Program-made: the position numbers and the translations under genes
Notes under the pieces: generated by a model
The model's database searches: none
Seen by the model: only the letters and a program-made list of their open reading frames with translations
What the model was told of the DNA's origin: nothing
Origin: an uncultured virus (IMG/VR IMGVR_UViG_3300034284_002793)
Taxonomy: Duplodnaviria; Heunggongvirae; Uroviricota; Caudoviricetes
DNA length: 20,000 bases
IMG/VR virus record: IMGVR_UViG_3300034284_002793
Span: 112,628-132,627 of that record
Reading direction: 5' to 3' (one strand)
Shown here: piece after piece, positions 6,577 to 19,875 of the stretch
How the letters are laid out: every line of letters begins with the position of its first letter
Position numbering within the stretch: position 1 is the stretch's first letter

Positions 6577-6582
6577 GTAGAC

Positions 6583-6768: not shown

Positions 6769-6809
6769 AGATCCCTTGACTTTAATGACAGCTCTGATAG
6801 ATTAAATAC

Positions 6810-7040
6810 ATGAATACATTCGAAGACTACATCAAACACAACGGCAAAGAATACTACCTCTGCACAGAGTATGCGTTCGATCACACTGATCAGTTGCAAC
6901 TCTCTGGCTTTGTCTTGACTGATGAAGACGGCGAAGACATCTCGCAAGATGACTTCGAAGCGAACAAGGATCTTTACGATCATGTCTGCATGGTTCTTGC
7001 TAACGAAGATGCTACCTGCTACGGCGGCGCACCTTGCTAA
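6810..7040 (+). CDS. Acidic hypothetical protein, 76 aa
   Basis: TTGACT(6776)-16-TAGATT, then ATG after 6 nt. Confidence 0.75.
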   Translation: MNTFEDYIKHNGKEYYLCTEYAFDHTDQLQLSGFVLTDEDGEDISQDDFEANKDLYDHVCMVLANEDATCYGGAPC

Positions 7041-7044
7041 CACT

Positions 7045-7131
7045 ATGACACACATCATTATGACATACATTGCAGAGGCGCTTGCCGTGGTGCTTATCCT
7101 CCTGCTTGGCGTTGCGATTCTCTCGATCTAA
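7045..7131 (+). CDS. Small single-TM peptide (start 7045 or 7060)
   Basis: Hydrophobic LAVVLILLLGVAILSI. The stop TAA is the first triplet of element copy 1. Confidence 0.5.
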   Translation: MTHIIMTYIAEALAVVLILLLGVAILSI

Positions 7132-7203
7132 GTTGTTCTAAATCAACGACTTACAACGGGCCACCCTGCGCGCGCGCGTAAGTCCTTGATAATGAGGCAC
7201 TTA
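7129..7203. repeat. Double-palindrome element, copy 1
   Basis: taagttgttctaaatcaacgactta + 25-nt GC core + taagtccttgataatgaggcactta. Confidence 0.9.
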
Positions 7204-7257
7204 CGAATGTCAAGTAAAAAAGATAAAAAAAATTTCACACAATCGCAAAAAAATCCC

Positions 7258-7285
7258 TTGCTTTTTCGGTGGCCTGTGATACATT
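7258..7285 (+). promoter_or_regulatory. sigma70-like module promoter
   Basis: AATCGCAAAAAAATCCC-TTGCTT-16-TACATT. Equivalent promoters have -35 at 8193, 9767, 10536, 11900 and 13286. Confidence 0.75.
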
Positions 7286-7291
7286 GTATGT

Positions 7292-7639
7292 ATGAAAGAT
7301 AAAGAAAACACCACGTTCAACGTCAACGGAACCCTTTGCACGCTCGTCGTCTCGGAAGATCGGGAGGATGATTGCACGAAGCTTTGGCATGACCTCGTCA
7401 GCGTTGACACTGGCAAGGTCGTCGCAACCCTCGACTGGTCGCCCTACTCTTGCCCCTCTAATGAGGAAGTGCAGCAGATCATCGACCTCGGCCTGCCTAA
7501 TGGCTTGCGTTGGGCTAACTCTCACCCTTCTTCTCGCTTCAACTTCGATAGCCTCATGCTGGCGAAATACCTCTCTGGCTACGAGCATCCCGATGGCGGC
7601 AAGATCGAACTGGTCTTCCGCGTTCGCTTGGCCGCATAA
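7292..7639 (+). CDS. Hypothetical protein, 115 aa
   Basis: ATG 6 nt after the -10 box; codon usage matches the region. Confidence 0.8.
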   Translation: MKDKENTTFNVNGTLCTLVVSEDREDDCTKLWHDLVSVDTGKVVATLDWSPYSCPSNEEVQQIIDLGLPNGLRWANSHPSSRFNFDSLMLAKYLSGYEHPDGGKIELVFRVRLAA

Positions 7640-7682
7640 AAAAACTCTTGCGCTTCCACTCAACATCCCATACTCTAACAAT

Positions 7683-7892
7683 ATGAACAGCATCCACGAC
7701 GACTACAACACGCAACCGCAATCCGACGAATACGCGACCGAGCACGAGGAAGTGCGCGGCACGTTCGCCGCCGAGCCTGCCGTTGAGCAGGAGCCGCAAC
7801 CCTATGATGGGTTTGAGGGGCAGTGGGCTGGGGATGGGTCGGGCTTCGACGACCTCGCAGACTGGGGCGAGCAGGAGGGCTGGGACACGTAA
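7683..7892 (+). CDS. Very acidic hypothetical protein, 69 aa (start moved from tracked 7368)
   Basis: TTGCGC(7648)-17-TACTCT-6-ATG. N-terminus IHDDYNTQPQSDE is shared with the 13320 gene. Confidence 0.75.
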   Translation: MNSIHDDYNTQPQSDEYATEHEEVRGTFAAEPAVEQEPQPYDGFEGQWAGDGSGFDDLADWGEQEGWDT

Positions 7893-8012
7893 GAGTGTCA
7901 TAAACTTTCTCCGAACGTTTCGATGCGTGTCTCCATGACGCGGGAATAAACGATGAGGAGACGAAGCGCCCGTTTAAACGGGCGTTTCAATTTGCTAAAA
8001 TTCAATGTTGCG

Positions 8013-8087
8013 TAAACCCTTGATATTCAACAACTTACGCTGGCGCGCGGGGCGCGCGGCCGTAAGTCCTTGATAATTAACGACTTA
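8013..8087. repeat. Double-palindrome element, copy 2 (GC core inverted)
   Basis: taaacccttgatattcaacaactta + cgctggcgcgcggggcgcgcggccg + taagtccttgataattaacgactta. Confidence 0.9.
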
Positions 8088-8226
8088 CGTAACGTCATCA
8101 AGAGTGTCATAAAGAATGTCATAGCGCAAAATTCAAACGCTCGTTTGCCAAAACGTCAACAAAAATAGTTTCGCTAATCGCAAAAAAATATCTCGCTTTT
8201 CGCGCGTCCTGTGCTATTCTGTATAC

Positions 8227-8409
8227 ATGAGAAACAACAACAGAAGCTGGCGCGACGAAGAACGCGAAGCAACCCTCGACTACCCGCTAGGTGTGGATCG
8301 TGAAGATCCCGCCTACCAGCAAAGCCCAGACGCTTACGAGCGTGAAATCGAGCGCCTTAATCGGCACGAAGGCTGGGAGCGTAATCGCGGTGGTTACTAC
8401 CGCCGATGA
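8227..8409 (+). CDS. Hypothetical protein, 60 aa
   Basis: TGTGC-TATTCT-6-ATG. Confidence 0.7.
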   Translation: MRNNNRSWRDEEREATLDYPLGVDREDPAYQQSPDAYEREIERLNRHEGWERNRGGYYRR

Positions 8410-8452
8410 AAAATCGCTTGACTTTCAGCCCCATTTCACCGATACTTTCAAC

Positions 8453-8617
8453 ATGACAGAAAACACCACAACTGGCTGGCCCGAAGTCTGGAACTTCGAC
8501 GAACCCAAAGACGACAACCTCACGCCCGAACAAGCGTTCGACATCCTTTTCGGCTACGCCGAGGAGCGTCATCGCAACGACCCGTGCGCTCGTCCCGCCC
8601 CTAAACCCAAACACTAA
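8453..8617 (+). CDS. Hypothetical protein, 54 aa (start moved from tracked 8291)
   Basis: TTGACT(8418)-17-GATACT-6-ATG. Confidence 0.7.
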   Translation: MTENTTTGWPEVWNFDEPKDDNLTPEQAFDILFGYAEERHRNDPCARPAPKPKH

Positions 8618-8621
8618 CACT

Positions 8622-8831
8622 ATGACAAACACAGACGGCATCATCAAGTCGCTTGAAACTCTCATCAAGCATGAGAAAGCAATTCAGCGTCAAGAAAAAG
8701 AAATTGAAAAATTAAAAGACATCATTGATGGCTCTTTGCAGACGATGCAGGGCCTTCTTGTGTTGAGCGCTGTTCTCTCAAAAGAGATTGAAAGCTTGCA
8801 CAATAATAAGCCTTCTTTTGGACTAAACTAA
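8622..8831 (+). CDS. Hypothetical coiled-coil protein, 69 aa
   Basis: Tightly packed ORF with a heptad-like pattern. Confidence 0.65.
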   Translation: MTNTDGIIKSLETLIKHEKAIQRQEKEIEKLKDIIDGSLQTMQGLLVLSAVLSKEIESLHNNKPSFGLN

Positions 8832-8832
8832 C

Positions 8833-8988
8833 ATGAGCAAAATCATTATGACAATCGACACGCGACCGCTTGCGCGTGTCATAGAGCGCAGCGTCCGCAA
8901 GGCATCTTGCCGCCCATCCTTCGCCATGCGTGTCAAGAAAAAATTCGCGCGCAAGGCAAAGTTTTTTCGCGGTTGGTCTGATCAGTAA
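8833..8988 (+). CDS. Small basic protein, 51 aa (not in ORF track)
   Basis: MSKIIMTIDTRPLARVIERSVRKASCRPSFAMRVKKKFARKAKFFRGWSDQ. Starts right after the previous stop; its TAA is the first triplet of element copy 3. Confidence 0.6.
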   Translation: MSKIIMTIDTRPLARVIERSVRKASCRPSFAMRVKKKFARKAKFFRGWSDQ

Positions 8989-9060
8989 AGCTTTGAATAT
9001 CAACGACTTGCGGCGGCGCGCCCCGCCGCGCGGCATAACCCATTGCAAATCAACGACTTG
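8986..9060. repeat. Double-palindrome element, copy 3
   Basis: taaagctttgaatatcaacgacttg + cggcggcgcgccccgccgcgcggca + taacccattgcaaatcaacgacttg. Confidence 0.92.
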
Positions 9061-9072
9061 CAATATATAGTA

Positions 9073-9089
9073 TTCAGGTAGCGTGCCAA
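9073..9089 (-). promoter_or_regulatory. sigma54-like -24/-12 motif facing element 3
   Basis: Minus strand reads TTGGCACGCTACCTGAA. Confidence 0.55.
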
Positions 9090-9164
9090 TATTGGCGAAT
9101 CTATAAAAATAAAAAAATAAAAAAACCTATTGACGAAAACATCAAACCGAGTTAGCATAAATGT

Positions 9165-9629
9165 ATGAAAAATAAAATTATAACAATCATAGTCACTGCA
9201 TTGGTAACCGCAGCAGTTACTTTCGTTACTCTATCACTTACAGATAGCGAACCGCTGACCGACTGGGTAAAAATGGCGAAGTTAAGAATTAAAGGATGCT
9301 CTGATCCCGAGGCGCACCTGAGCAACGCCAAGCGGATAAAGGGTTGGCTTACCGCAGTTGGAGAGCATGAGCCTGTTAGTGTGAGAATCAGAGAAGGTGT
9401 AGGCTTGCCGCCAGACCAGAGTTTGGCTCCTAAAGGGGTTAAACTCACTCCAACAGCTACAGAAATGTTCATTTTAGTTCGTTCTTCTGATTTTGAGAAC
9501 AATATCCGTGAGATATACGAATTTGATCTCATGAAAATTATGGTGGATAAGGATGCAAGAAAACAATTAAGAGAACTTATTACCAAAACTAAAGCACAGA
9601 GCAATGAGTTTGGTTTCGGTAGTAACTAA
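9165..9629 (+). CDS. Membrane-anchored or secreted hypothetical protein, 154 aa
   Basis: N-terminal basic then hydrophobic segment. TTGACG(9130)-17-TAGCAT-6-ATG. Stop lies inside element 4. Confidence 0.8.
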   Translation: MKNKIITIIVTALVTAAVTFVTLSLTDSEPLTDWVKMAKLRIKGCSDPEAHLSNAKRIKGWLTAVGEHEPVSVRIREGVGLPPDQSLAPKGVKLTPTATEMFILVRSSDFENNIREIYEFDLMKIMVDKDARKQLRELITKTKAQSNEFGFGSN

Positions 9630-9697
9630 CTGAAATTCAACAACTTGCAGAGCCAGATCGGGCCGCGCGGCGTAACTCCTTGATATTCAAAGACTTA
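9623..9697. repeat. Double-palindrome element, copy 4
   Basis: taactaactgaaattcaacaacttg + 25-nt core + taactccttgatattcaaagactta. Confidence 0.88.
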
Positions 9698-9709
9698 CGC
9701 AAAACGCTA

Positions 9710-9726
9710 CGCAATAGCCATGCCAA
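9710..9726 (-). promoter_or_regulatory. sigma54-like -24/-12 motif facing element 4
   Basis: Minus strand reads TTGGCATGGCTATTGCG, with canonical GG-N10-GC. Confidence 0.6.
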
Positions 9727-9800
9727 GTTGCAGAAAAAAAATTTCACACAATCGCAAAAAAATCCCTTGCATTTTTGCGCGTCCGCGCTATATTGAAATC

Positions 9801-10316
9801 ATGAAAGAGAGAAAATCACTAAACGAAAAGCCTCTGACTTGCCTGTTCGTCGGCGTTACCCTCGCTTTGGTATCAGCAGGAGTTGCCATTTATGGGTTGC
9901 GGTTTGGGTTTGCGTCTATTGCCTTTTTGCTTGTTGCTGCTGCAATCTTAAATATCGCAGCGTGGTTTTTTGCCACCCCTGTCGTCTCTTTCGTTGGCGA
10001 TTTTGTAGGAAAATTTTTTACTGGAAGTCAAAACTTTAGCAAGCCCCAGCCTGCTTACAGCCTGCCAGATGGTCTTGCCGCTACCGGACAAAACGCTTGC
10101 GCTATCCTTGCCTACAATGAACTTGCAAAAAATCATCCCGAAGAAATCTTGCCTCATCTTCGCGTGATGAGAATATGGATTGAAAAAATGAATGACGTTG
10201 ACGCTGCGGTTATGGCTTACAATCTCGCCTTGAAAAAAATTCGCGGACAAAAAAATCGCAACGAGTTTACAAAAATGGCAAAAAATAATTTCAGCAAATT
10301 CATCAGCTTTGAATGA
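9801..10316 (+). CDS. Membrane protein with 2 predicted TM helices and a helical, possibly TPR-like C-terminus (start moved from tracked 9720)
   Basis: TTGCAT(9767)-16-TATATT-6-ATG; two hydrophobic stretches. Confidence 0.75.
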   Translation: MKERKSLNEKPLTCLFVGVTLALVSAGVAIYGLRFGFASIAFLLVAAAILNIAAWFFATPVVSFVGDFVGKFFTGSQNFSKPQPAYSLPDGLAATGQNACAILAYNELAKNHPEEILPHLRVMRIWIEKMNDVDAAVMAYNLALKKIRGQKNRNEFTKMAKNNFSKFISFE

Positions 10317-10383
10317 GTGTCATAGCAATGTCATAAACGCTCGGTCAAACGGGCGTTTTACTTTGCGCGAAACCAATTCTATA

Positions 10384-10458
10384 TAAACCCTTGAAAATCA
10401 ACGACTTACGGCGGCGCGCCCCGCCGCGCGGCGTAACCCATTGCAAATCAACAACTTA
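10384..10458. repeat. Double-palindrome element, copy 5
   Basis: taaacccttgaaaatcaacgactta + cggcggcgcgccccgccgcgcggcg + taacccattgcaaatcaacaactta. Confidence 0.92.
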
Positions 10459-10470
10459 CAACATACATCA

Positions 10471-10487
10471 TTCAGATAGCGTGCCAA
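10471..10487 (-). promoter_or_regulatory. sigma54-like motif facing element 5
   Basis: Minus strand reads TTGGCACGCTATCTGAA. Confidence 0.55.
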
Positions 10488-10569
10488 CTTTGCAGAGGGG
10501 CAAAAAATAAAAAAAATAAAAAACGAAAAAATCCCTTGCGTTTTTGCAGTCCTGTGCTATTCTTTAAGC

Positions 10570-10722
10570 ATGGAAAAGAAAATGACTCAATATGCGGACA
10601 AGCTCAACGCCTTCCGCGCTGGCGAAATCACCGAGGACGAATGGAAAGCGTTCTGTTTTGAGGCTCTCTCCGAGATTCTCGAAGACACGAAAGATGTCCT
10701 CATCAGGCTGAAAAATGCTTGA
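10570..10722 (+). CDS. Hypothetical protein, 50 aa (not in ORF track)
   Basis: TTGCGT(10536)-16-TATTCT-6-ATG; MEKKMTQYADKLNAFRAGEITEDEWKAFC... Confidence 0.7.
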   Translation: MEKKMTQYADKLNAFRAGEITEDEWKAFCFEALSEILEDTKDVLIRLKNA

Positions 10723-10753
10723 CCCAATCGCAACAATCAAACATACTACGACC

Positions 10754-10930
10754 ATGAAACAAACACCACAAAAAGCCCAACTCTGGGCAGTCGGAAACAA
10801 AGTCTATCGCGTCATCCGCAACGAAGGCGACAAGACTCACGTTCATCATCACGGGCAAATGGCCCTGTTCTATACGCGCCATCTGAAAATGGCGACACCT
10901 TCACAAGTTGCAGAATACTTGGGAAAATAG
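10754..10930 (+). CDS. Hypothetical protein, 58 aa
   Basis: TTGACC(10719)-17-CATACT-6-ATG. Confidence 0.7.
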   Translation: MKQTPQKAQLWAVGNKVYRVIRNEGDKTHVHHHGQMALFYTRHLKMATPSQVAEYLGK

Positions 10931-10966
10931 TTTGACAATCACCACAAAACCTAACAGAATAACAAC

Positions 10967-11182
10967 ATGACAAAAAAACAATTCACCGCAATCGCTAACA
11001 TCTTGGGAAAACGCTTGGCCGAAAAAGTCAAAGCACCCATCGGAGAATACGAAGTTGTCGAAGTCCTCGCGTTGGACTTGGCGAAATACTTCTCGACAGA
11101 AAACCCTCGTTTCGACGAAGATCGCTTTCTGGAAGCTGTTTTTACTCACACCCCTAACATCCCTGTGGGATCATATAAATAA
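10967..11182 (+). CDS. Hypothetical phage protein, 71 aa
   Basis: TTGACA(10932)-17-CAGAAT-6-ATG. MTKKQF..IA...NPRFD..RFL.A pattern recalls a common small phage protein. Confidence 0.8.
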   Translation: MTKKQFTAIANILGKRLAEKVKAPIGEYEVVEVLALDLAKYFSTENPRFDEDRFLEAVFTHTPNIPVGSYK

Positions 11183-11186
11183 TCAC

Positions 11187-11366
11187 ATGAAAAAATACAT
11201 CACATTCGACCGCATTGCCTACGCAATGTCCCTCTCCACCTTCATCTTCATCGCCGTGACGCTTTGCGCTGCTTGCGTTGAATTGCAAAACAGAACCAGC
11301 AAGAACCAAAAGCAAATGCAGGAAGAAGTCCGCGCAATGTTTGCCCACATCGAGGCACCTCTATGA
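11187..11366 (+). CDS. Small single-TM protein, 59 aa
   Basis: ATG just after the previous stop; hydrophobic segment; ATGA overlap with the next gene. Confidence 0.65.
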   Translation: MKKYITFDRIAYAMSLSTFIFIAVTLCAACVELQNRTSKNQKQMQEEVRAMFAHIEAPL

Positions 11367-11563
11367 TTACCCCCAATATCCAAAAAGCTCTTGAGTCAAA
11401 CGGAGTTCGTTTCTTTGCAAAAGACTTTCTCATGGAAGGTATGCGGAAAGACTGCGTTGACGCCGTGCATGATGCAAAACTCGTTTACGAATTGCTAAAA
11501 GAACGCATGGAAAAAATGCTTGCAATCGAACCCGAAGACGAATACATTAAAGCCAATGAGTAA
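11363..11563 (+). CDS. Hypothetical protein, 66 aa
   Basis: ATGA-coupled to the upstream ORF. Confidence 0.7.
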   Translation: MITPNIQKALESNGVRFFAKDFLMEGMRKDCVDAVHDAKLVYELLKERMEKMLAIEPEDEYIKANE

Positions 11564-11744
11564 AGACCAAGTCAAAGCCGTGTGCGATTACTCGCATGAT
11601 GTCATAATGAAAATCAAAGCCGTGTTCGGATTCAAAAAGAAAAGTCCTTCGCTTCTTTGTCATAGTCTCGCGCACCTCAACACCGCGACATGGCTTGAGC
11701 GCGCGGTCTGCAACGGCACAATCATGGACTACAAGCCGCGATAA
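11556..11744 (+). CDS. Hypothetical protein, 62 aa
   Basis: TTGCAA(11520)-17-TACATT-7-ATG. Stop lies 2 nt before element 6. Confidence 0.6.
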   Translation: MSKDQVKAVCDYSHDVIMKIKAVFGFKKKSPSLLCHSLAHLNTATWLERAVCNGTIMDYKPR

Positions 11745-11746
11745 CG

Positions 11747-11821
11747 TAAAGCGCTAATAATCAAGCACTTACGGCGGCGCGCCCCGCCGCGCAGCGTAAG
11801 TCGTTGAAAATCAATCACTTA
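11747..11821. repeat. Double-palindrome element, copy 6
   Basis: taaagcgctaataatcaagcactta + cggcggcgcgccccgccgcgcagcg + taagtcgttgaaaatcaatcactta. Confidence 0.92.
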
Positions 11822-11833
11822 GGCAAAAGCACT

Positions 11834-11850
11834 TTCATACAGTGTGCCAA
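11834..11850 (-). promoter_or_regulatory. sigma54-like motif facing element 6
   Basis: Minus strand reads TTGGCACACTGTATGAA. Confidence 0.5.
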
Positions 11851-11933
11851 GTCCGCTGTCAAGTAGAAAAAAAATATTTTTTTAATCGTAAAAAATTCCT
11901 TGCGTTTTTGGCATATTGTGGTATTCTTTAATT

Positions 11934-12173
11934 ATGAAAATCACCAAGCCCGACCTCTACGAAGCCCTCATCCAAGCGCGTGTCGCCTTATCGAAAGACA
12001 TCCGCGAAACTTTGCGCGGTCGCCACCTCTCCTACGTTCAAGACCTCTCGCGGAAATCCATCCGCGAAAAAATCGCGGCCTATCGGTTGCTCTCCAACCT
12101 CTCCACGATCAACGCGGAAAGCTACTCGGACAACCGCTCTCTGCGTCACGTTAAAAAAGCTCTTGCCAAGTAA
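11934..12173 (+). CDS. Basic hypothetical protein, 79 aa
   Basis: TTGCGT(11900)-16-TATTCT-6-ATG. Confidence 0.7.
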   Translation: MKITKPDLYEALIQARVALSKDIRETLRGRHLSYVQDLSRKSIREKIAAYRLLSNLSTINAESYSDNRSLRHVKKALAK

Positions 12174-12198
12174 CGCAATCTCTGACAAAATCACCACC

Positions 12199-12882
12199 AT
12201 GAAACTACTAAGCACCAACAATACCAAAATCAAAAAAGGCGAAAAGCTCGGCTGGCGCACTTACGGCCTTTCACTTTCACCCGCTGGCAAAAGTGGAAAA
12301 CAATTCTGTCCGCATCGCTCGGCTGGCTGTGAGTTTGCTTGTCTCGACACTTCGGGCATGGGCATCTTCTCAAACGTCCAAGACGCACGCCTTGCAAAGT
12401 CGCGTTTCTTCATCGACAACCGCAACGAGTTTCTCGCTCAGTTGCATAAAGAATTGCACAATGCCGAAAAGTGGAGCGCAAAAAATAATACGCCTGTGGC
12501 CGTGCGTCCGAACGTGCTTTCTGATCTGCCTTTCCATAAGCTGATCGACATGGCGCGCTTTCCGTCAATTCAGTTTTACGATTACACGCCGAACCTTCAA
12601 CGCATGATGCAGTTTCTAAACGGCGAGTTGCCTAAAAATTATCACCTGACCTTCTCGCGCAAAGAGGACAATCAGCATCGTGTCCACGCTGTTGTTGCCG
12701 CTGGCGGTAACGTGGCCGCTGTCTTTAGTGAGTTGCCCGAAACCTACCTCGGAAAGCCTGTCATAAACGGCGACGAAAGCGACTTGCGTTTTCTCGACGC
12801 GCAGGGCGTGATCGTTGGACTCAAAGCAAAAGGCAAAGCTCTCAAAGATCAATCTGGCTTTGTGGTGCAAGTTGGCGTATAA
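12199..12882 (+). CDS. GP88-family phage protein (Cys-cluster, possibly Fe-S)
   Basis: CPxxSxGCxxxCL, RPNVLSD, FYDYT, NYHLTFS, GGNVAAVF and GDESDLRFLD motifs recognised by eye. Promoter TTGCCA(12163)-17-CAAAAT. Confidence 0.75.
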   Translation: MKLLSTNNTKIKKGEKLGWRTYGLSLSPAGKSGKQFCPHRSAGCEFACLDTSGMGIFSNVQDARLAKSRFFIDNRNEFLAQLHKELHNAEKWSAKNNTPVAVRPNVLSDLPFHKLIDMARFPSIQFYDYTPNLQRMMQFLNGELPKNYHLTFSRKEDNQHRVHAVVAAGGNVAAVFSELPETYLGKPVINGDESDLRFLDAQGVIVGLKAKGKALKDQSGFVVQVGV

Positions 12883-12953
12883 TGAAAACCTATGGAAATC
12901 ATAATCCTTCTTGCTGGCATTATCGGTGGCGCATTACTAATAAATAAAAAATT

Positions 12954-13112
12954 ATGACACTAAACCTAATCGCACGAAAAAACTTGTTTCGCTTGTCTGA
13001 ATACTTTTTCAGCCTTGCGGTATGGTGGGAACGCGCTGGCGTTATGACACTCCAAAAACTTTTCTTTATGGGGTGGCAAAAATGCCTTGACACACGAGAC
13101 AAATTACGGTGA
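12954..13112 (+). CDS. Hypothetical protein, 52 aa (not in ORF track)
   Basis: MTLNLIARKNLFRLSEYFF...; stop lies 2 nt before element 7. Confidence 0.5.
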   Translation: MTLNLIARKNLFRLSEYFFSLAVWWERAGVMTLQKLFFMGWQKCLDTRDKLR

Positions 13113-13114
13113 CA

Positions 13115-13189
13115 TAACCTACTGAAAATCAACGACTTACGGCGGCGCGCCCCGCCGCGCGGCGTAAGTGCTTGAAAATCAACGACTTA
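13115..13189. repeat. Double-palindrome element, copy 7
   Basis: taacctactgaaaatcaacgactta + cggcggcgcgccccgccgcgcggcg + taagtgcttgaaaatcaacgactta. Confidence 0.92.
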
Positions 13190-13201
13190 TACAAAATGCC
13201 A

Positions 13202-13218
13202 TTCAAGAAGCATGCCAA
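13202..13218 (-). promoter_or_regulatory. sigma54-like motif facing element 7
   Basis: Minus strand reads TTGGCATGCTTCTTGAA. Confidence 0.55.
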
Positions 13219-13319
13219 CTCACAGAAAAAACGCTCGTTTGAATTTTCGTCAACAAAAATACTTTTCAGAATCGCAAAAAATCCATTGCATCGTGCCGTG
13301 CCTGTGCTACTCTTTACCT

Positions 13320-13451
13320 ATGCAAGCGAACACCATCACCGACGACTTCAACACGCAAACCCAAAGCGACGAGTTTGCCTCCGAATTTGAGGCTTGGCTC
13401 GACGCGCAGGAACTGAAATACTGGCAGGAAATCGACGCTCGCGGAAATTAA
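13320..13451 (+). CDS. Acidic peptide, 43 aa, paralogous N-terminus to the 7683 gene
   Basis: TTGCAT(13286)-16-TACTCT-6-ATG; ITDDFNTQTQSDEFA. Confidence 0.7.
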   Translation: MQANTITDDFNTQTQSDEFASEFEAWLDAQELKYWQEIDARGN

Positions 13452-13455
13452 TTTT

Positions 13456-13692
13456 ATGACAAACACAAACCCACTACACGGCTACCTCTCCGACTGCTGC
13501 GGAGCCGAACACGACATCAACGCCGAACACCACATTCTCAACGAGAGTGTGCGTGGAGGATGCTCCGCTTGCGGACACTACTCGGAGTTTTCCCCTGTGG
13601 AGGAAAACGTCCGGCACAATCAACGCATCAGCCTCTCCGCTCTCAATGCGTTCGTGCCAGACGAGTTGAACTCTTACGAGCAGCCGTGGTAA
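13456..13692 (+). CDS. Small zinc-ribbon-like protein
   Basis: SDCCGA...GGCSACGH cysteine pairs. Confidence 0.7.
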   Translation: MTNTNPLHGYLSDCCGAEHDINAEHHILNESVRGGCSACGHYSEFSPVEENVRHNQRISLSALNAFVPDELNSYEQPW

Positions 13693-13735
13693 ATTGTTTG
13701 ACACTCTCAACCCTAACAACTAACATCATCAATCT

Positions 13736-14230
13736 ATGAACAAAGCAAAAGTCCTAATCAGTCCTTACGGAAACGGCATCGCTGTCGGCCTTGAGGGAAA
13801 CAAAGATCAAATCGAACGCGAATATAATCGCTTTTTTAATTGGGGCGCAGCTGGTGCTGGCGCGAATGTCGAACGTGGCAACGGCGACTCTGAAATCCAG
13901 CACGGAGAACTTGGCGACTCTTACCTCCACTATGTCGGAGAAGGGTTTGCCTACTTCCTGTCATCGGAAAAAGATATGCTTCGCGCTATGACATATGAAC
14001 ACTTGACCAAGTGGCAAGATAGCGAAACGTCAGCGCAATATAAAACAAAGCCACGCAATCACAAGAGGGATTCGGGCAAGGTATTCCGCGAACACGCGCA
14101 GATCGCAGCGCAAGACGAATATAATGAAATCGAACGCGAGAACTTCATGCTCTACCAGAAAGCTCCCGCATACATCTTCCGCGAGCTTGATGGCGGCGCG
14201 CCGTCTTGGAGAAGTGAAACGGAGGACTAA
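13736..14230 (+). CDS. Hypothetical protein, 164 aa
   Basis: TTGACA(13698)-17-TAACAT upstream; codon usage matches the region. Confidence 0.8.
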   Translation: MNKAKVLISPYGNGIAVGLEGNKDQIEREYNRFFNWGAAGAGANVERGNGDSEIQHGELGDSYLHYVGEGFAYFLSSEKDMLRAMTYEHLTKWQDSETSAQYKTKPRNHKRDSGKVFREHAQIAAQDEYNEIERENFMLYQKAPAYIFRELDGGAPSWRSETED

Positions 14231-14234
14231 TATA

Positions 14235-14504
14235 ATGAAAAAAATACTTGTCACCGTTAAGCAAATTATAGAAGTCCCAGACTCTTTCAAAATTACAAGT
14301 TTTACAGAGCCAGGAGATGTAGCGTTTGATTATATAAAAATAGGAAAAAAATTAACTGCGCCAGATATAACATGGTTTGACTATGACAAAGTTTCTGGCG
14401 TTGGAAGCGAGAGCGACGAACTCGTTGAGCGTCTCGCCCCTGCAATAGTTGACTACTCCTTGCAAGAATTTTCTTTCGATGAAGATCCTAACGTAAGTTG
14501 TTGA
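14235..14504 (+). CDS. Hypothetical protein, 89 aa, AT-rich codons
   Basis: GGAGG upstream; ATG just after the previous stop; its TGA lies inside element 8. Confidence 0.7.
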   Translation: MKKILVTVKQIIEVPDSFKITSFTEPGDVAFDYIKIGKKLTAPDITWFDYDKVSGVGSESDELVERLAPAIVDYSLQEFSFDEDPNVSC

Positions 14505-14568
14505 AAATCAACGACTTGCGGCCCCGCGCCCCGCGCCCATGTGTAAGTGCTTGATACTGAACAACTTA
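14494..14568. repeat. Double-palindrome element, copy 8
   Basis: taagttgttgaaaatcaacgacttg + 25-nt core + taagtgcttgatactgaacaactta. Confidence 0.9.
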
Positions 14569-14635
14569 TACATAATACCATAACAAGCCCATCTGATAAT
14601 AATAATGCATTTTTATTCATATGATAGTGTTTTAT

Positions 14636-14702
14636 CTATTTAGCTATTTGACTAATAACTATTTCCTATTTATCTATTTCACTTTTAGCTATTTCGCTAT
14701 TT
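14636..14702 (+). repeat. CTATTT direct-repeat array
   Basis: Exact CTATTT at 14636, 14644, 14659, 14666, 14674, 14689 and 14697, with degenerate copies at 14652 and 14682. Confidence 0.8.
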
Positions 14703-14810
14703 GTCGAAGTATTTAAGAAATTTCGACAGGTTTTTTTGTTATGTCGAAAGGATCGACATGAGAGAAAAACATTTGACTGATGTGTAAATTGTGATAGAGT
14801 TGGAGGTAGA

Positions 14811-14884
14811 GGAGTTTTAGCTCAATTGGTTAGAGCGCTGCCCTGTCACGGCAGAGGTTGCGGGTTCGAGCCCCGTAAACTCCG
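14811..14884 (+). tRNA. tRNA-Asp(GTC)
   Basis: Acceptor ggagttt/aaactcc; anticodon arm ctgcc-ctGTCac-ggcag; TTCGA T-loop; no encoded CCA. Promoter TTGACT(14773)-16-TAGAGT. Confidence 0.95.
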
Positions 14885-14892
14885 TTTTTTTT

Positions 14893-14967
14893 GGGAAGGT
14901 AGCTCAAAGGTAGAGCAGCGCCCTTTTAAGGCGTTGGTTCTGGGTTCGATCCCCAGTCTTCCCACCA
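14893..14967 (+). tRNA. tRNA-Lys(TTT)
   Basis: Acceptor gggaagg/tcttccc; gcgcc-ctTTTaa-ggcgt; encoded CCA. Confidence 0.95.
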
Positions 14968-15033
14968 AAAAAATTTCAAAAAATAATCAAAATACCCGTT
15001 GACAAAACCATCAAAAAACCCTATTCTTAAAAC

Positions 15034-15297
15034 ATGAAAGCACTACTAAATAAAGTCAAACTCGCAATCGCTGACTCCAAAATCGGTCAGTTCACCAACC
15101 CTGTGTATCGCTTGAAGTATCGGCCTTACACCGAACAAGGAAACAATGAGGTTTATACCTACTTCGTTTCTCGACCCTTCGACTTGTTCGCTAACGGAAT
15201 CGTGGCTTACTGCTTCGGCAAAGGTGTTCGCAGGTTCCGCTACGATGAAATCGTTGAGCGGGAAGTTGTATCGCTCTTTGGAAAATCTGTGGCGTAA
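15034..15297 (+). CDS. Small WYL-like (Sm/SH3-type barrel) domain protein
   Basis: LKY...VSRPF...IVAYCFGKGVRRFRYDEI matches the WYL RxFRxDRI signature. TTGACA(14999)-17-TATTCT-6-ATG. Confidence 0.6.
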   Translation: MKALLNKVKLAIADSKIGQFTNPVYRLKYRPYTEQGNNEVYTYFVSRPFDLFANGIVAYCFGKGVRRFRYDEIVEREVVSLFGKSVA

Positions 15298-15312
15298 AGC
15301 CACGAATAAACA

Positions 15313-16050
15313 ATCTGCCCGACAATCAATATCGGAAATAAAAGAAGCAAAGTTAACCGGATCTTTGCGGTGGTCGCTTAATGCGAAATATAAAACATCC
15401 GCCGAGGCAGATAAACATTTACAAGTAGCCCGAAAAAATATCGGAAACAAAAGCAGGACAGAATAGCGTCTGTCATCATATACAAAACGCACCGAGGCTT
15501 GAAATATGGGAGTCGCCCCGACCCCAAAGATGTAATGCATGACATCTCGGGGCAACTTTAAATATCTACGAGTTCATACCAGAGGGAACTGGTGCCCACG
15601 CGTAGAGAATAAACTCCCAAACTTTTAGTTCTTTTACATCTTGAGGGCTGACTCCTCCCAGAAGGGGGAGAGCGCGCAGCAGAAAACCAGAGGAATTAAC
15701 CTCCAGCCCACAACTCTCCCAAGCTCTGGCGGATACATCTCCGTTCAACTTGTGAGCTAGTCGTCGAAAGACGATTCGATGTCGGTGCCGCCAGAAGGCA
15801 CGGAGTCATAGGCAGGGAGTTCTGGCCTCCCTGTCAACACTTTCTGTCATAAAAAAAAATCGCCGTGGAGTAACGGTCCACTAGTCAGAACCTACTGATG
15901 AATAAGAGTAAGCTGATCGTGACAGCAATAAAGGGGATGGTCACCACCGACCCGCGAGCGGCTCGCGTTAGCTGGTTAGTGCTGCAAAGCATTAGCCCCC
16001 ATTTGATCCGTAAGGAGACGATGATGGGAAGCATGGCAGCCGACACTTTC
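15313..16050 (+). ncRNA. Candidate large structured ncRNA, or cluster of ncRNAs, upstream of tRNA-Cys
   Basis: No convincing ORF; many nested stems, GNRA tetraloops and complementary loops (see findings). Confidence 0.65.
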
Positions 16051-16121
16051 GCACCTTTAGCCAAGTGGTAAGGCAGGAGTCTGCAACACTCTTATCGCTG
16101 GTTCGAATCCAGCAAGGTGCT
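16051..16121 (+). tRNA. tRNA-Cys(GCA)
   Basis: Acceptor gcacctt/aaggtgc; ggagt-ctGCAac-actct; U discriminator; no CCA. Confidence 0.93.
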
Positions 16122-16187
16122 GATTATCAACGAGTTACAGCTACACGCCCCGCCGCGCCGCGTAAATGCTTGAATATCAACGCTTTA
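16113..16187. repeat. Double-palindrome element, copy 9, overlapping the tRNA-Cys 3' end
   Basis: caaggtgctgattatcaacgagtta + 25-nt core + taaatgcttgaatatcaacgcttta. Confidence 0.85.
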
Positions 16188-16240
16188 TAAAGTATAAATA
16201 TCCAGTTGACAAAATTTTCAAATAGGGCTATTCTTACAGC

Positions 16241-16966
16241 ATGATCACCACACAACTACCTCTACCCATGCGTTGCTCTTCTGATGCTCTCGTTCAGCCA
16301 GAGCTTGAACTCAAGCCTACGCGCAATCCTTCCTACTCTCGCGTCGAACGCTTCTTTGATTCCTTGGATCGTTCGCGTGTTGTGTCATACACCGACTACT
16401 GGAATTCCATTGCGCCCAAAGGAACACAAGATGCAATGTTGCGCTGGCTCTTTGCTTTTATGTCAGTCCATACGAGTTGGAAGTCCAACGTCAACGGCTA
16501 CAACGCAATCAAAACAATGGATTGGTGGCACGATCAACAAGTCCTCCTTAACAAGCTCAAGCATAGTGGCGTTGGCTTGCACAACAATCGCACGAAATTT
16601 GTCTGGCAGTTCCAGAAAAACTTTTGGGGTGATGTCAAAAAGTATTCTCACGCTCCTACGGATTGGCGCGGTCATCGTGACGAGTTGGTTAGCGAAGTGC
16701 TTGGTCTTGGCAAAGCTAAAGTCTCTTTCTCGTTGGAGATGATTCATCCCGACAAGTGCGAAGTTGTCTGCATGGATACTCATATGTTCCAAGCCTACTC
16801 GCTCGACCAAACCAAAGACGAAAAACATTACGATAACATCGAAGCCCATTGGATTTCAATGTGCCGTGCGTATGACGTTCCCTGCTACATTGCGCGTTGC
16901 CTTTACTGGGATGCGATTCAAGACAAGCAGGATTCGCGCTACTGGTCGTATGTTTTTGAAGAATAA
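16241..16966 (+). CDS. Helix-hairpin-helix DNA glycosylase-like protein (Ogg/EndoIII superfamily)
   Basis: LVSEVLGLGKAKVSF HhH-like motif followed by VVCMDTHM with the catalytic-type Asp. Promoter TTGACA(16206)-17-TATTCT-6-ATG. Confidence 0.7.
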   Translation: MITTQLPLPMRCSSDALVQPELELKPTRNPSYSRVERFFDSLDRSRVVSYTDYWNSIAPKGTQDAMLRWLFAFMSVHTSWKSNVNGYNAIKTMDWWHDQQVLLNKLKHSGVGLHNNRTKFVWQFQKNFWGDVKKYSHAPTDWRGHRDELVSEVLGLGKAKVSFSLEMIHPDKCEVVCMDTHMFQAYSLDQTKDEKHYDNIEAHWISMCRAYDVPCYIARCLYWDAIQDKQDSRYWSYVFEE

Positions 16967-17004
16967 TCCTTGCAATCCATTTCAAAATCCAATACATTAA
17001 GAAC

Positions 17005-17229
17005 ATGAACAAAACCACTACCATCATCACCCGCCGTTCACCCTTCACCCAAAAAGTTAACAGGATGGAGATTCCTCTCTCCCATTCGGAGTTTGAGAAG
17101 AGGACAATTCTTTGGCAGTCTGGGATGCTCATTCAAGATGCGTTCCCCATGCTGTCCGCTGATGAGCGCGAGTTCATCAAAACTGGTATCACTCCCGAAG
17201 AGTGGGAACAGATGTTTGGAGAAGACTAA
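17005..17229 (+). CDS. Hypothetical phage protein, 74 aa
   Basis: TTGCAA(16970)-17-TACATT-6-ATG; LIQDAFPxLSADEREFIKTG motif familiar from small phage proteins. Confidence 0.8.
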   Translation: MNKTTTIITRRSPFTQKVNRMEIPLSHSEFEKRTILWQSGMLIQDAFPMLSADEREFIKTGITPEEWEQMFGED

Positions 17230-17250
17230 TATAGAAAGGAGGAAAATATA

Positions 17251-17421
17251 ATGAAACTAATCGAAGGTGCTATTTATAACTACAAAGGGGAAGCTGTTCG
17301 TTTCCGTAAACAGATTGGCGTTGTTGCTTTCTTGTCGCGTCGTAAGCGAGGTTCGTTTGTTGGACGAACTGATTTGCTCAAGAAGGCAAATAAAAAGCAG
17401 GTCGATAAATTCCTCAAATAA
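17251..17421 (+). CDS. Basic hypothetical protein, 56 aa (not in ORF track)
   Basis: AAAGGAGG upstream; MKLIEGAIYNYKGEAVRF...; stop lies 3 nt before element 10. Confidence 0.7.
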   Translation: MKLIEGAIYNYKGEAVRFRKQIGVVAFLSRRKRGSFVGRTDLLKKANKKQVDKFLK

Positions 17422-17424
17422 GCG

Positions 17425-17499
17425 TAAAGCTCTCGTAATCATGGGGTTACGAGGGCGCGCCCCGCCGCGCTGCGTAAGTCGTTGGAAATCAACCACTTG
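17425..17499. repeat. Double-palindrome element, copy 10
   Basis: taaagctctcgtaatcatggggtta + cgagggcgcgccccgccgcgctgcg + taagtcgttggaaatcaaccacttg. Confidence 0.88.
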
Positions 17500-17511
17500 C
17501 GCATTTGTCCT

Positions 17512-17528
17512 TTCAGGAACCGTGCCAA
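17512..17528 (-). promoter_or_regulatory. sigma54-like motif facing element 10
   Basis: Minus strand reads TTGGCACGGTTCCTGAA. Confidence 0.55.
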
Positions 17529-17605
17529 TTCCCAGAAAAATATTTTCAATCAAATTGCAAAAAAAGGTTTGCTCGCTCATACAAAAACACTTATTCTTAT
17601 GAAGT

Positions 17606-18385
17606 ATGAGAAACCTAAACCTAACACTGCACTGCGGCGGTCACGCCGTGGAATCCACCCAAGTTCAGCAAACTCCCACTCCCGCACCCACGGATTCGTG
17701 GATGCCCATCCCGCACTTCGCGCTCATCGAGCGTCTGCGCGAGATCGTCGGTAGTGCTGGCTTGACCATCACGCAAGAGGCGCACGCCCTTGCTCGCAAC
17801 GGCCTTCGCTACTTCGGATTGTTCCAAGTGGCGGGAATCCCCAACTTCTCACAGGAGTCCAACATCGGGACTGTGATCGGCTTGCGCAACTCGCACGACA
17901 AGTCGTTTCCCGCTGGCATCAACGCTGGTTCCGCGCCTTTCGTGTGCGACAACCTCGCGTTTCACAACGAGATCAAAATCGCTCGTCGTCACACCAAGTT
18001 CATCATGCGCGACCTTCCTTCGCTCCTTTCGGGCGCATTCGGAAAGTTGCTCAACACTTGGGGCAACAACGCCAAGCGTATCGAGGCTTACCAGTCTTGC
18101 GCGCTCAAGGACGTTCAAGCGCACGACCTCATCGCCAAGGCTTACCGCTGTGGCGCAGTGAGCAAGACCGCTCTGGCGGACGTTCTCGACCAGTGGCACA
18201 ACCCCGAACACGCCGAGTGGTCGGAGCAGAAGAACCTCTGGGGTCTTCACAACTCCTTCACCAACGTCATGCGCGGAAACGTGCTCGCGTTGCCCAAGCG
18301 TAGCGATGCGCTCCACGGACTTCTCGACCCTATCGCAGGCGTGGCGCTGGCGAGGGCAGAAGACGCCGAGGCCATCACGGTCTAA
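17606..18385 (+). CDS. DUF932-family phage/plasmid protein
   Basis: PIPH...FGL...GLRNSHDKS...G..FVCDNL...RHT motifs typical of DUF932. Confidence 0.8.
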   Translation: MRNLNLTLHCGGHAVESTQVQQTPTPAPTDSWMPIPHFALIERLREIVGSAGLTITQEAHALARNGLRYFGLFQVAGIPNFSQESNIGTVIGLRNSHDKSFPAGINAGSAPFVCDNLAFHNEIKIARRHTKFIMRDLPSLLSGAFGKLLNTWGNNAKRIEAYQSCALKDVQAHDLIAKAYRCGAVSKTALADVLDQWHNPEHAEWSEQKNLWGLHNSFTNVMRGNVLALPKRSDALHGLLDPIAGVALARAEDAEAITV

Positions 18386-18400
18386 ATTCTGAGACGCACA

Positions 18401-18438
18401 AAAGGGCTTGGCAGGGCAACCTGTCAAGTCTTTTTTTT
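18401..18438 (+). terminator. Intrinsic terminator
   Basis: ggcttggcagg-gcaa-cctgtcaagtc hairpin followed by T8. Confidence 0.85.
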
Positions 18439-18457
18439 GCAAAAATTCATTGTTGTG

Positions 18458-18532
18458 TAAGTCATTGAATATCAAGCACTTGCGCCGCCGCGCCCAGCTG
18501 CCCAGCGTAAGTCTTTGATTGTCAAGGGTTTA
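18458..18532. repeat. Double-palindrome element, copy 11
   Basis: taagtcattgaatatcaagcacttg + 25-nt core + taagtctttgattgtcaagggttta. Confidence 0.9.
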
Positions 18533-18596
18533 CATTTTAATGCAAAAAATATCTTGACCGCACACGCAAAAGACTTTATTGTCATTATATCACCAC

Positions 18597-18923
18597 ATGA
18601 AACTATCAGAAATTCAAGCCATTGCAAACCTCACAGCAAAATTCCTCGGACTCCCAATCAAACCCAAGGCCGAAATTACTACCAATAAACGAGGCCGCGC
18701 CTACACCACGCAGGGCCGCTTCAATATTCCAGAGTGGGCCTTCAAGCACGGAGAAAAGTTTGTCATATACTATGTTGTGCATGAAGTCTGCCACTTTTAC
18801 GGAGGAACATTAGATCACGGCAAACTCTTTTGTCAAGTCGAAGACCGCGCATTAAAATTTTGGGGGCTTTACATTCAACGCAAAAAAGTTTATCCTAATC
18901 CACAATCAATCTACAAACTATGA
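18597..18923 (+). CDS. Small zincin metallopeptidase-like protein (SprT/YgjP-like)
   Basis: YYVVHEVCH...DHGKLF (HExxH plus distal His). Confidence 0.75.
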   Translation: MKLSEIQAIANLTAKFLGLPIKPKAEITTNKRGRAYTTQGRFNIPEWAFKHGEKFVIYYVVHEVCHFYGGTLDHGKLFCQVEDRALKFWGLYIQRKKVYPNPQSIYKL

Positions 18924-19168
18924 GCAAAAATACCTGCCCTGCTGATTACGATGGCGAAATGCTTGTTATCGGTGGCTATGTAAAATACGATGGAAAGACT
19001 TGGGAAGTCCTTGACTACGAAGATTCCGAACAGCCATACTTTGATGATAACTACACGGAACATAGTATTCTTTTATTGGCTTGCCGCTCGCAAGAGGAAG
19101 ACAATATTTGGATACCAGATTATGAGGTAGAGCAAACTGAATATCAGCAATTGTGTTTTGAACTATGA
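18920..19168 (+). CDS. Acidic hypothetical protein, 82 aa
   Basis: ATGA-coupled to the upstream gene. Confidence 0.7.
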   Translation: MSKNTCPADYDGEMLVIGGYVKYDGKTWEVLDYEDSEQPYFDDNYTEHSILLLACRSQEEDNIWIPDYEVEQTEYQQLCFEL

Positions 19169-19247
19169 AAAATATCGTTCTATTTGTCGCTCTACCTATC
19201 ACTATTTGTGTCTGGTCGTTCACTATTTATGGAGTAATTAAATTTTT

Positions 19248-19320
19248 GGGGTGGTAGCTCAATGGTTAGAGCGTGCGGCTCATAATCGCTTGGTTGTCGG
19301 TTCGAATCCGACCCGCCCCA
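19248..19320 (+). tRNA. tRNA with CAT anticodon, probably Ile2 (lysidine type) rather than Met
   Basis: Acceptor ggggtgg/ccgcccc; loop ctCATaa. The CTCATAATCGCTTGGT stretch resembles bacterial tRNA-Ile2; the paired 1-72 position argues against an initiator. Confidence 0.88.
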
Positions 19321-19395
19321 CATCTATTTGAAAATCAAGCACTTACAGATGAGTGCCCCGCCGCGCCGCGTAAGTCGTTGATATTCAATGGCTTA
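19321..19395. repeat. Double-palindrome element, copy 12, abutting the tRNA 3' end
   Basis: catctatttgaaaatcaagcactta + 25-nt core + taagtcgttgatattcaatggctta. Confidence 0.85.
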
Positions 19396-19439
19396 CAAAA
19401 ACACTTGACACCAATCGCAACCTGTGATACATTTAGAGG

Positions 19440-19604
19440 ATGAACACTACTATTGCATCCTGTCGTGAACAAATCCAAGAGGACTTGATTTGCTTGCTTG
19501 AAGCTGCGAATAATCTTGGCCTCAAAGAACATCTTGAAGAAGTCACTACGCTGGCCTGTAAAATTGTGGTTGACAACTTCAAAAAACTTGAGAAGATAAG
19601 CTAA
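19440..19604 (+). CDS. Hypothetical protein, 54 aa (not in ORF track)
   Basis: TTGACA(19405)-17-TACATT-6-ATG; TAATG overlap with the next gene. Confidence 0.7.
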   Translation: MNTTIASCREQIQEDLICLLEAANNLGLKEHLEEVTTLACKIVVDNFKKLEKIS

Positions 19605-19867
19605 TGAACGACTACAAACTACCCAAAGACGCCTACTCTGCTGCTCGCTATGACGAGTTACACTTTGCTGTTGCCCACTATGGCACAGCCATGCACCGAA
19701 ACCTTTGGGACTTGCTTGTTGACGCTGGCTTGAGCAAGCGACAAATCTTTTCCCAATACATGAAGGTTCTTCGTGTGACTACGGCTGTAAATAAAGACAT
19801 TCTCTATTGTGTAGGGACTGGTAATTTTTCAATCAAACCTGTTGACAAAAAGAGCAAAACCCTATAA
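19604..19867 (+). CDS. Hypothetical protein, 87 aa
   Basis: TAATG-coupled ORF. Confidence 0.65.
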   Translation: MNDYKLPKDAYSAARYDELHFAVAHYGTAMHRNLWDLLVDAGLSKRQIFSQYMKVLRVTTAVNKDILYCVGTGNFSIKPVDKKSKTL

Positions 19868-19875
19868 TATCAAAA

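Follow-up and report, generated by a model that had tools for sequence, protein, structure and literature searches.

What does a rigidly built repeat do between the early genes of a large phage? The question is raised by a 20,000-nt stretch of DNA (hereafter the window) that forms the last 20 kb of the 132,627-bp record of an uncultured virus of the Caudoviricetes (IMG/VR record IMGVR_UViG_3300034284_002793, positions 112,628 to 132,627). Direct reading and a repeat search both located 12 copies of a 75-bp element in the window, at the very starts given by a first-pass annotation made from the sequence alone. The early regions of large lytic phages are dense in uncharacterized host-takeover genes, and how their strong promoters avoid interfering with one another is poorly understood. 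Tentatively, and with slightly less than even confidence, the element is read here as a protein-binding boundary of duplex DNA, built like a bacterial interspersed mosaic element (BIME), that punctuates the early transcription units.

Each copy consists of a 25-bp core, almost entirely G and C, between two imperfect palindromes of 25 bp each, the three-part build described in the first-pass annotation. The palindrome has 11-nt arms around a 3-nt A/T centre and follows the consensus TAAGT-NN-TTGA-WWW-TCAA-NN-ACTTA, with the two palindromes of an element standing in a 50-bp register. The same annotation had found none in the AT-rich structural half; an nhmmer profile of the 12 copies matched only those 12 in the whole 132,627-bp record and none in its remainder of 33% G+C, and a 16-base palindrome pattern (up to two mismatches) yielded 22 matches in the record, all within elements, against 0 for the reversed-pattern control. 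A 170,518-bp viral contig (CheckV completeness 100%), whose first and last 255 bases repeat each other, is 100% identical to positions 7704-20000 of the window. The window's record is an incomplete copy of this 170.5-kb genome, without 37.6 kb between its two ends. The complete genome adds two copies, giving 14 elements in a single plus-strand, high-G+C block of ~17 kb, 13 of them in the same orientation, and no solitary palindrome was found outside elements in the genome. The 14th element stands at the 3′ end of the block, before the promoter of two tRNA genes and the switch to minus-strand genes. As for base composition, ~119 kb of the record is at roughly 33% G+C and its last 13 kb at roughly 47%, with the record ending inside a gene. 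The switch in G+C content is sharp at both ends of the block (window 6480-20000; complete genome 1-16000), which is at ~47% within a ~33% genome.

Based on what lies immediately upstream, the 12 window copies can be grouped into three categories: (i) seven that include the preceding stop codon or begin no more than 5 nt from it, namely E1 (7129..7203, with a degenerate core; its TAA at 7129-7131 is the stop of ORF 6922-7131), E3 (8986..9060; TAA 8986-8988 is the stop of ORF 8833-8988), E4 (9623..9697, containing the stop codon of ORF 9165-9629), E6 (11747..11821, 2 nt past the stop codon of ORF 11556-11744), E7 (13115..13189, the copy nearest to the consensus, 2 nt past the stop codon of ORF 12954-13112), E8 (14494..14568, containing the stop codon of ORF 14235-14504) and E10 (17425..17499, 3 nt past the stop codon of ORF 17251-17421); (ii) two that abut the 3′ end of a tRNA, namely E9 (16113..16187), whose first 9 nt overlap the end of tRNA-Cys (16051-16121), and E12 (19321..19395), whose first base is the last base of tRNA-Met (19248-19321); (iii) three that follow an intrinsic-terminator-like hairpin on the plus strand, namely E2 (8013..8087) after a hairpin with a T-rich tail at 7966..7994, E5 (10384..10458) after a hairpin plus T-run at 10339..10366, and E11 (18458..18532) after an 11-bp stem plus T8 at 18405..18438. 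These three hairpins were recognized by reading and are not in the terminator consensus scan. All window copies are on the plus strand except E2, which is inverted and has GGGG instead of CCCC in its core on that strand. Both extra copies of the complete genome likewise follow strong terminators. A separate intrinsic terminator is therefore found upstream of 5 of the 14 elements, and these five are probably little transcribed from upstream, while the seven window copies at stop codons and the two abutting tRNAs must be transcribed.

Downstream of every element, at a distance of 0-204 bp, lies a predicted sigma-70-type promoter (the one past E10 was recognized by eye alone). No element precedes the first early promoter (6539-6589), and the block ends with one, which assigns the element to the 3′ end of a unit rather than to a promoter. 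A consensus scan found 31 promoter-like sites against 14.5 expected, and three repeat families (D4-D6) consist of an A-tract, TTGC, N16-17 and TGnTATTCT. Many genes within the blocks also carry their own promoter, and every module has one. In fact nearly every early gene has a sigma-70-type promoter (window 6539-19880; for example, 7258-7294, 10533-10572 and 16206-16243), of which two classes can be told: one, with an A-tract, TTGC and an extended -10 box, follows elements, and the other, with TTGACA, is found inside blocks. With -10 boxes that end 6-7 nt upstream of the ATG and no Shine-Dalgarno sequence at internal genes, the early mRNAs seem to have little or no leader.

We propose that the element marks the 3′ boundary of each early operon, 0-204 bp ahead of the next early promoter. 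A dimeric or architectural protein with sequence specificity would most likely recognize its palindromes as duplex DNA, with the G+C core acting either as a terminator-derived hairpin or as a stiff spacer. The bound complex would then insulate adjoining, strongly transcribed units from one another: it would block read-through, form a topological barrier and prepare the next promoter. Recombination that shuffles genes would be a side effect, for which the copies offer homology. This proposal and the three alternatives weighed below are not mutually exclusive.

To see how rigid the element is, copies were collected beyond this genome. A strict pattern found 30 loci in 14 viral contigs, in which profile matches amounted to 87 copies, 74 of them distinct. 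After one partial match of 19 bits was dropped, the remaining 73 distinct copies, aligned with MAFFT, filled exactly 75 columns with zero gaps, so that the absence of indels first claimed for 12 copies now extends to 73. Twelve of the 75 columns are invariant and 20 further ones are at least 90% conserved; variation is free at positions 4-7 and 19-20 of each arm, with conserved blocks alternating with variable ones. In two related contigs (L013:2685-3099 and L008:9641-10055), three consecutive elements are found 170 bp apart in the orientations -, + and -, leaving just 95 bp between neighbours, and these resemble empty, promoter-only units.

Nine of the 12 window copies being at stop codons or tRNA ends, an alternative is that the element works in the RNA, as a 3′ element like that of the promoter early stem-loops (PeSLs) of T4-type phages: the folded core, alone or with the inner arms, would terminate or attenuate the upstream early transcript or protect its 3′ end from exonucleases. 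The G+C core can form a 5-6-bp hairpin, and stem-loops in the corresponding position of PeSLs are proven terminators in the available text of PMC2839356. Nevertheless we consider this explanation unlikely. On the coding strand the cores are followed by TAAGT and not by the U-tract of a terminator, just one terminator-like site of the consensus scan (18507-18533) overlaps an element, and 5 of the 14 copies are already behind a canonical terminator. The pairing of the 73 copies also speaks against it. RNAalifold returned no consensus structure for them, and single-copy folds vary among copies (z-scores from -0.09 to -6.5). With shuffles in which the 3′ partners were exchanged among copies as control, the two local hairpins were paired in 73.6% of cells versus 74.6% (491 of 500 shuffles at least as high) and showed fewer double changes than the shuffles; the whole-element fold showed anti-covariation (73.4% versus 76.9%; 500 of 500 shuffles at least as high) and the core hairpin no covariation (69.9% versus 69.0%; 106 of 500 shuffles as high). 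At columns 19:57, the centre of the inner arms, 66 of the 73 copies are unpaired because one arm has CG where the other has GC. Mismatches are balanced (109 G·T versus 118 A·C), and no strand, the coding strand included, is favoured as RNA by a wobble bias. These results show that the conserved bases are kept as sequence, not as pairs, and a simple hairpin would leave both the invariant bases and the anti-complementary centre unexplained. A folded hairpin of the N4 or attC type, considered separately, was ruled out by the lack of covariation.

A looser pattern, with the inner arms 10-40 nt apart, found at least 132 viral loci, which fall into sub-families with fixed spacers. Among the matches listed were three distant relatives, with identities of 34-36% for the terminase, 37-38% for the portal and 44% for a putative capsid protein. 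The first (G007; 112.8 kb) harbours nine palindrome pairs at 50 bp and one at 44 bp, with GC cores of different sequence but an unchanged layout of stop codon, element, A-tract and TTGACA promoter; the second (G008; a 22-kb fragment) harbours seven pairs at 51 bp, two at 50 bp and one at 60 bp, and further palindromes too; the third (G006; a 47-kb fragment) harbours ten pairs at 58 bp with a 33-bp core, on the strand of the longer ORFs. In the third, the core reads GACCCC, a varying tetraloop (TTCG, GAAG, GTAG or TACG) and GGGGTC followed by TTTTG, which is a canonical terminator co-directional with the genes and a point in favour of action in the RNA. The statement of the first-pass annotation that the element is no terminator was thus too strong. 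On the evidence of these sequences, the layout is old and conserved, with the palindromes constant and the length of the GC-hairpin core setting a lineage-specific register. The same annotation had envisaged two protein dimers bound in a fixed geometry. Recognition of duplex DNA is indeed favoured by the lack of covariation, the lack of wobble bias and the five copies of 14 behind terminators, whereas the geometry is lineage-specific, with periods of 50, 51 and 58 bp and one relative that mixes 50, 51 and 60 bp. Since the element is conserved at operon ends across phages with 30-45% protein identity, it is under selection.

Which protein might read the palindromes as duplex DNA was approached through their sequence. 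Each palindrome arm, read outward, fits the IHF consensus WATCAANNNNTTR (WATCAA-N4-TTR). The window contains 24 matches to this consensus against 1.75 expected, 22 of them inside elements, and among the 73 distinct copies exact matches are found in 51 left and 41 right palindromes. Judging from its doubled form, TTGA-W3-TCAA might be what a symmetric, homodimeric relative of IHF would prefer. A tyrosine recombinase, another reader suggested earlier, is not encoded: no PF00589 match was found in the six frames of the complete genome, in Pfam scans of 173 ORFs or in the three relatives. Likewise, neither the complete genome nor the three relatives have a PF01797 match (Y1 transposases, including the REP-associated tyrosine transposases, RAYTs, of repetitive extragenic palindromes, REPs).

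The palindrome itself also occurs in bacteria. In a collection of species-representative genomes, the pattern TAAGTNNTTGANNNTCAANNACTTA was found at 125 loci or more; many of them have T-runs and NN positions that are perfectly complementary, and are probably chance matches of ordinary terminator hairpins, so that only amplified families were taken as evidence. With up to one mismatch, there are 463 palindromes in a 6.8-Mb Microscillaceae metagenome-assembled genome (MAG), 53 and 9 in two Saprospiraceae MAGs and 15 in an Akkermansia MAG, against 0 for the reversed pattern in each of these four genomes. Over 238 kb of the Microscillaceae MAG (up to two mismatches), 82 of 86 sites are outside ORFs of at least 100 codons, with 38 sites in tandem, 13 in divergent and 11 in convergent spacers, 20 at contig edges and 4 in ORFs. 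Their 5′ flank is T-rich and their 3′ flank A-rich, their NN positions are unpaired, as in the phage, and T-W-A is favoured in their loops, so that the DNA palindrome continues across the centre. Doublets 46 bp apart, within a longer repeat, are found among the sites of this MAG. A single contig of the bacterial collection holds the complete element, with palindrome, core and palindrome; it is 1.9 kb long, has two elements, was binned in a Verrucomicrobia MAG, and is probably phage DNA and weak evidence for a host. A search for prophage or spacer-like matches in the four palindrome-rich genomes returned none, just tRNA and palindrome matches. In a WOR-3 MAG and a Hydrothermia MAG, the palindrome is located inside a longer multi-copy repeat (L044, L046 and other loci). 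A GGGGGGC-GAAG-GCCCCCC hairpin lies ~45 nt away in this repeat, the palindrome being again paired with a GC hairpin.

These bacterial families bring the element close to the BIMEs. In the available text of PMC2817692, BIME-1, also called reiterative ihf BIME (RIB), of E. coli is found at the 3′ ends of transcription units and has an IHF site between two inverted REPs. As far as that text goes, the two share this position, extragenic palindromes set at regular distances with a short linker between them, an IHF-consensus match and a lineage-specific copy number in bacteria; in keeping with REPs and BIMEs in general, the element's palindromes are extragenic, imperfect, within 20-40 bp and regularly spaced in composite units. 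The arrangement is turned inside out, however: in the phage, it is the AT-rich palindromes that match the IHF-type consensus, and a GC-rich palindromic sequence serves as the linker. The element is also phage-borne, comes with no RAYT gene flanked by REPs, and does not keep its palindromy by compensatory change. The conserved terminal tag of REPs, GTAG or CGTC according to the available part of PMC3733652, is at neither end of the palindrome in the 73-copy consensus. It is possible, though doubtful, that the palindrome is the site of a DNA-binding system common to a deep clade of freshwater phages and scattered bacteria (Microscillaceae, Saprospiraceae, WOR-3/Hydrothermia and the Akkermansia MAG), and that the phages domesticated paired copies around a terminator core as a phage BIME, which would recruit a host REP-binding factor to insulate the first-expressed DNA. 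If so, palindrome content could predict the host. The sharing of the palindrome with REP-like repeats of particular bacteria gives a handle both for capture of the reader protein and for host prediction.

Several observations weigh against a protein-binding boundary. (i) As to the protein, the IHF consensus is Proteobacterial and may not be that of the host, no match to HU/IHF (PF00216) was found in the complete genome, and Pfam scans of the 173 ORFs revealed no DNA-binding family besides two sigma factors of the extracytoplasmic function (ECF) type. (ii) As to the geometry, the register varies (50, 51 and 58 bp, and mixed in one relative), so a single stereospecific arrangement is not required, and the 0-204-bp range of distances from element to promoter argues against activation that depends on the face of the helix. 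(iii) As to the RNA, the core of the 58-bp lineage is a real terminator, so a contribution at that level cannot be dismissed; a 5-bp helix between columns 6-10 and 26-30 is paired in 77.8% versus 70.5% (0 of 500 shuffles as high), a value resting largely on U·G pairs and a few related copies; and covariation tests have no power at invariant columns. (iv) As to the bacterial families, in an even sample of 200 further genomes from the phylum of the Microscillaceae MAG, 195 lack the palindrome (the other five have 14, 1, 1, 1 and 1 matches). It therefore behaves like a lineage-specific REP, and an amplified REP-like repeat fits better than the site of a universal nucleoid protein.

Such an amplification raises the possibility that the element is a selfish or recombinogenic repeat, similar to REPs and BIMEs or to miniature inverted-repeat transposable elements (MITEs), that was spread by a host enzyme or by homologous recombination and shuffles the early modules. 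The palindrome reaches hundreds of copies in a few unrelated bacterial lineages, including the doublets 46 bp apart, and is absent from most of the phylum, and module and gene order differs among relatives of the phage. To locate the breaks in synteny, blastn matches of at least 230 nt to seven relatives were chained, and the tally, which excludes the second locus of one contig, came to 78 break ends that are not independent, as the relatives share ancestry. Of these, 48 fall in gene-start or promoter zones (25% of sequence), 17 in element zones (11%), 4 at gene ends (2%), 5 in other intergenic sequence (8%) and 4 inside genes (54%), so that 65 of the 78 are at promoters or elements together. 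In contigs from four lake-water DNA runs, joints were also found at promoters and element edges (for example, 8967 to 10383 and 8087 to 8176), but their shorter sides are just 26-42 nt and they may reflect related strains.

A repeat spread for its own sake nevertheless appears improbable. When 222 matching flank pairs were compared across contigs, none revealed an empty site: 193 are separated by 74-75 bp, 20 by 61-72 bp (truncated profile envelopes) and 9 by 128-152 bp (tandem copies), and not one by a gap near 0. Neither Y1/RAYT nor tyrosine recombinase is encoded by the complete genome or the three relatives, and none of seven Y1 genes in two palindrome-rich bacteria is flanked by the palindrome (up to two mismatches). 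Moreover, the element is found only at operon boundaries, in one orientation in 13 of 14 cases, and is kept across phages with 30-45% protein identity, which points to selection for function. The first-pass annotation had suggested that the element bounds mobile gene cassettes. Because synteny breaks mostly at gene-start promoters, this idea is only partly right: the 17 break ends in element zones speak for it, and the 48 at promoters and the lack of an empty site against it. Element copies would add to gene shuffling by homology, as PeSLs do, and the moving unit would usually be a single gene with its own promoter, not an element-bounded cassette.

The comparison with PeSLs, made in the first-pass annotation, is apt. 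In both, as the available text of PMC2839356 and PMC4122927 describes PeSLs, a composite motif recurs in the spaces between small early genes that are ORFans, after the stop codon of one gene and before the start codon of the next; a GC-rich 3′ element comes first, followed by an A-rich or AT-rich tract (here upstream of the -35 box), a strong predicted promoter of the sigma-70 type and the start codon; related phages differ by indels and replacements that coincide with copies; and a dedicated recombinase is not encoded. Within the same limits of the sources, three differences can be named: where PeSLs have a simple stem-loop as their 3′ part, this phage has a rigid four-arm motif of 75 bp in which some bases are invariant and compensatory changes are absent; a Shine-Dalgarno sequence is missing here, the -10 box being 6-7 nt upstream of the ATG; and the majority of break ends fall at promoters that have no element. 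In addition, this phage is only remotely related to cultured phages. The idea of repeated regulatory cassettes that shape genome plasticity thus extends to an unrelated phage group and to a 3′ module defined by sequence.

The likeness to integrons, also proposed earlier, is superficial. Both have imperfect inverted repeats between short gene modules in one orientation, and attC sites have an unpaired central spacer, which is loosely like the unpaired centre of the element's inner arms. Yet the phage encodes no tyrosine recombinase and each module brings its own promoter, so this is not an integron; there is neither IntI nor attI, the length is fixed at 75 bp while that of attC varies, sequence and not structure is conserved, and break ends are mostly elsewhere. 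At gathering scores the sole Rfam matches were four tRNAs, at E ≤ 1 the elements had none, and no described family that matches was found in Rfam, in a literature search with the palindrome word or in the REP and PeSL literature, supplements aside. By its organization, the element is a new variation on PeSL and BIME; the sequence-defined four-arm motif and its sharing with REP-like families of bacteria appear to be new here.

A third alternative starts from a motif beyond the element. The pattern TTGGCAY-N6-TGM has six matches in the window against 0.27 expected, all on the minus strand, all exactly 13 nt past an element and pointing into it: at 9074..9089 (E3), 9711..9726 (E4), 10472..10487 (E5), 11835..11850 (E6), 13203..13218 (E7) and 17513..17528 (E10). 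Sigma-54 promoters have GG and GC doublets 10 nt apart (TGGCAC-N5-TTGC). Their spacing fits all six copies, and with a gap of 13 nt, a sigma-54-type start would fall ~1-2 nt before the element. Such a promoter could start a small RNA, the reverse complement of the element, that is structured, ends at a U-rich loop and pairs as antisense with the elements in early mRNAs; the loops are 62-65% A on the coding strand, hence U-rich in a minus-strand RNA. We regard this as very improbable. The motif accompanies just 6 of the 12 copies, and the near-invariant GC at -12 is present in only one (the TGC of the copy past E4), the other five having GA; an enhancer-binding activator is not encoded, the sole PF00158 match being a RuvB-like AAA+ protein; and the elements show neither a minus-strand wobble bias nor covariation.

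As for the phage that carries the element, lake-water metagenomes dated 2016 to 2025 contain its DNA. Its terminase is ~23% identical to those of Bacillus phages, which indicates only remote kinship to cultured phages, and blastn of 7 kb against a collection of cultured phages gave no match. Thirty of the 36 window ORFs are without a Pfam family at E ≤ 0.01, and the plus-strand genes are small. The phage encodes RecA-like, RuvB-like and PD-(D/E)XK proteins. Because it also encodes two ECF-type factors of the sigma-70 family (record 63564-64211 and 103023-103706, both on the minus strand), a sigma cascade for middle and late transcription is suggested.

The best-conserved early gene encodes a GP88-family protein (window 12199-12882; Pfam PF17338, E = 2e-40), which is 49-52% identical in the three distant relatives, whose structural proteins are just 30-45% identical; a PDB sequence search with it found no relative. 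Between ORF 15034-15297 and tRNA-Cys, the 581 nt at 15470-16050 are without a convincing ORF and are 83-91% conserved in relatives. This stretch folds better than 100 of 100 shuffles (z = -4.4), has no Rfam match at E ≤ 1 and is a candidate structured RNA. Iteron-like direct repeats of CTATTTAGCTATTTCA (window 14631-14702; period 15, 4.4 copies) are located in the AT-rich gap between E8 and the promoter of tRNA-Asp and tRNA-Lys. Finally, a short motif read by eye, (G/A)TGTCATA(A/G), is found at 7893-7905, 8101-8125 and 10317-10338, where it adjoins the terminator-like hairpins that precede or follow E2 and E5.

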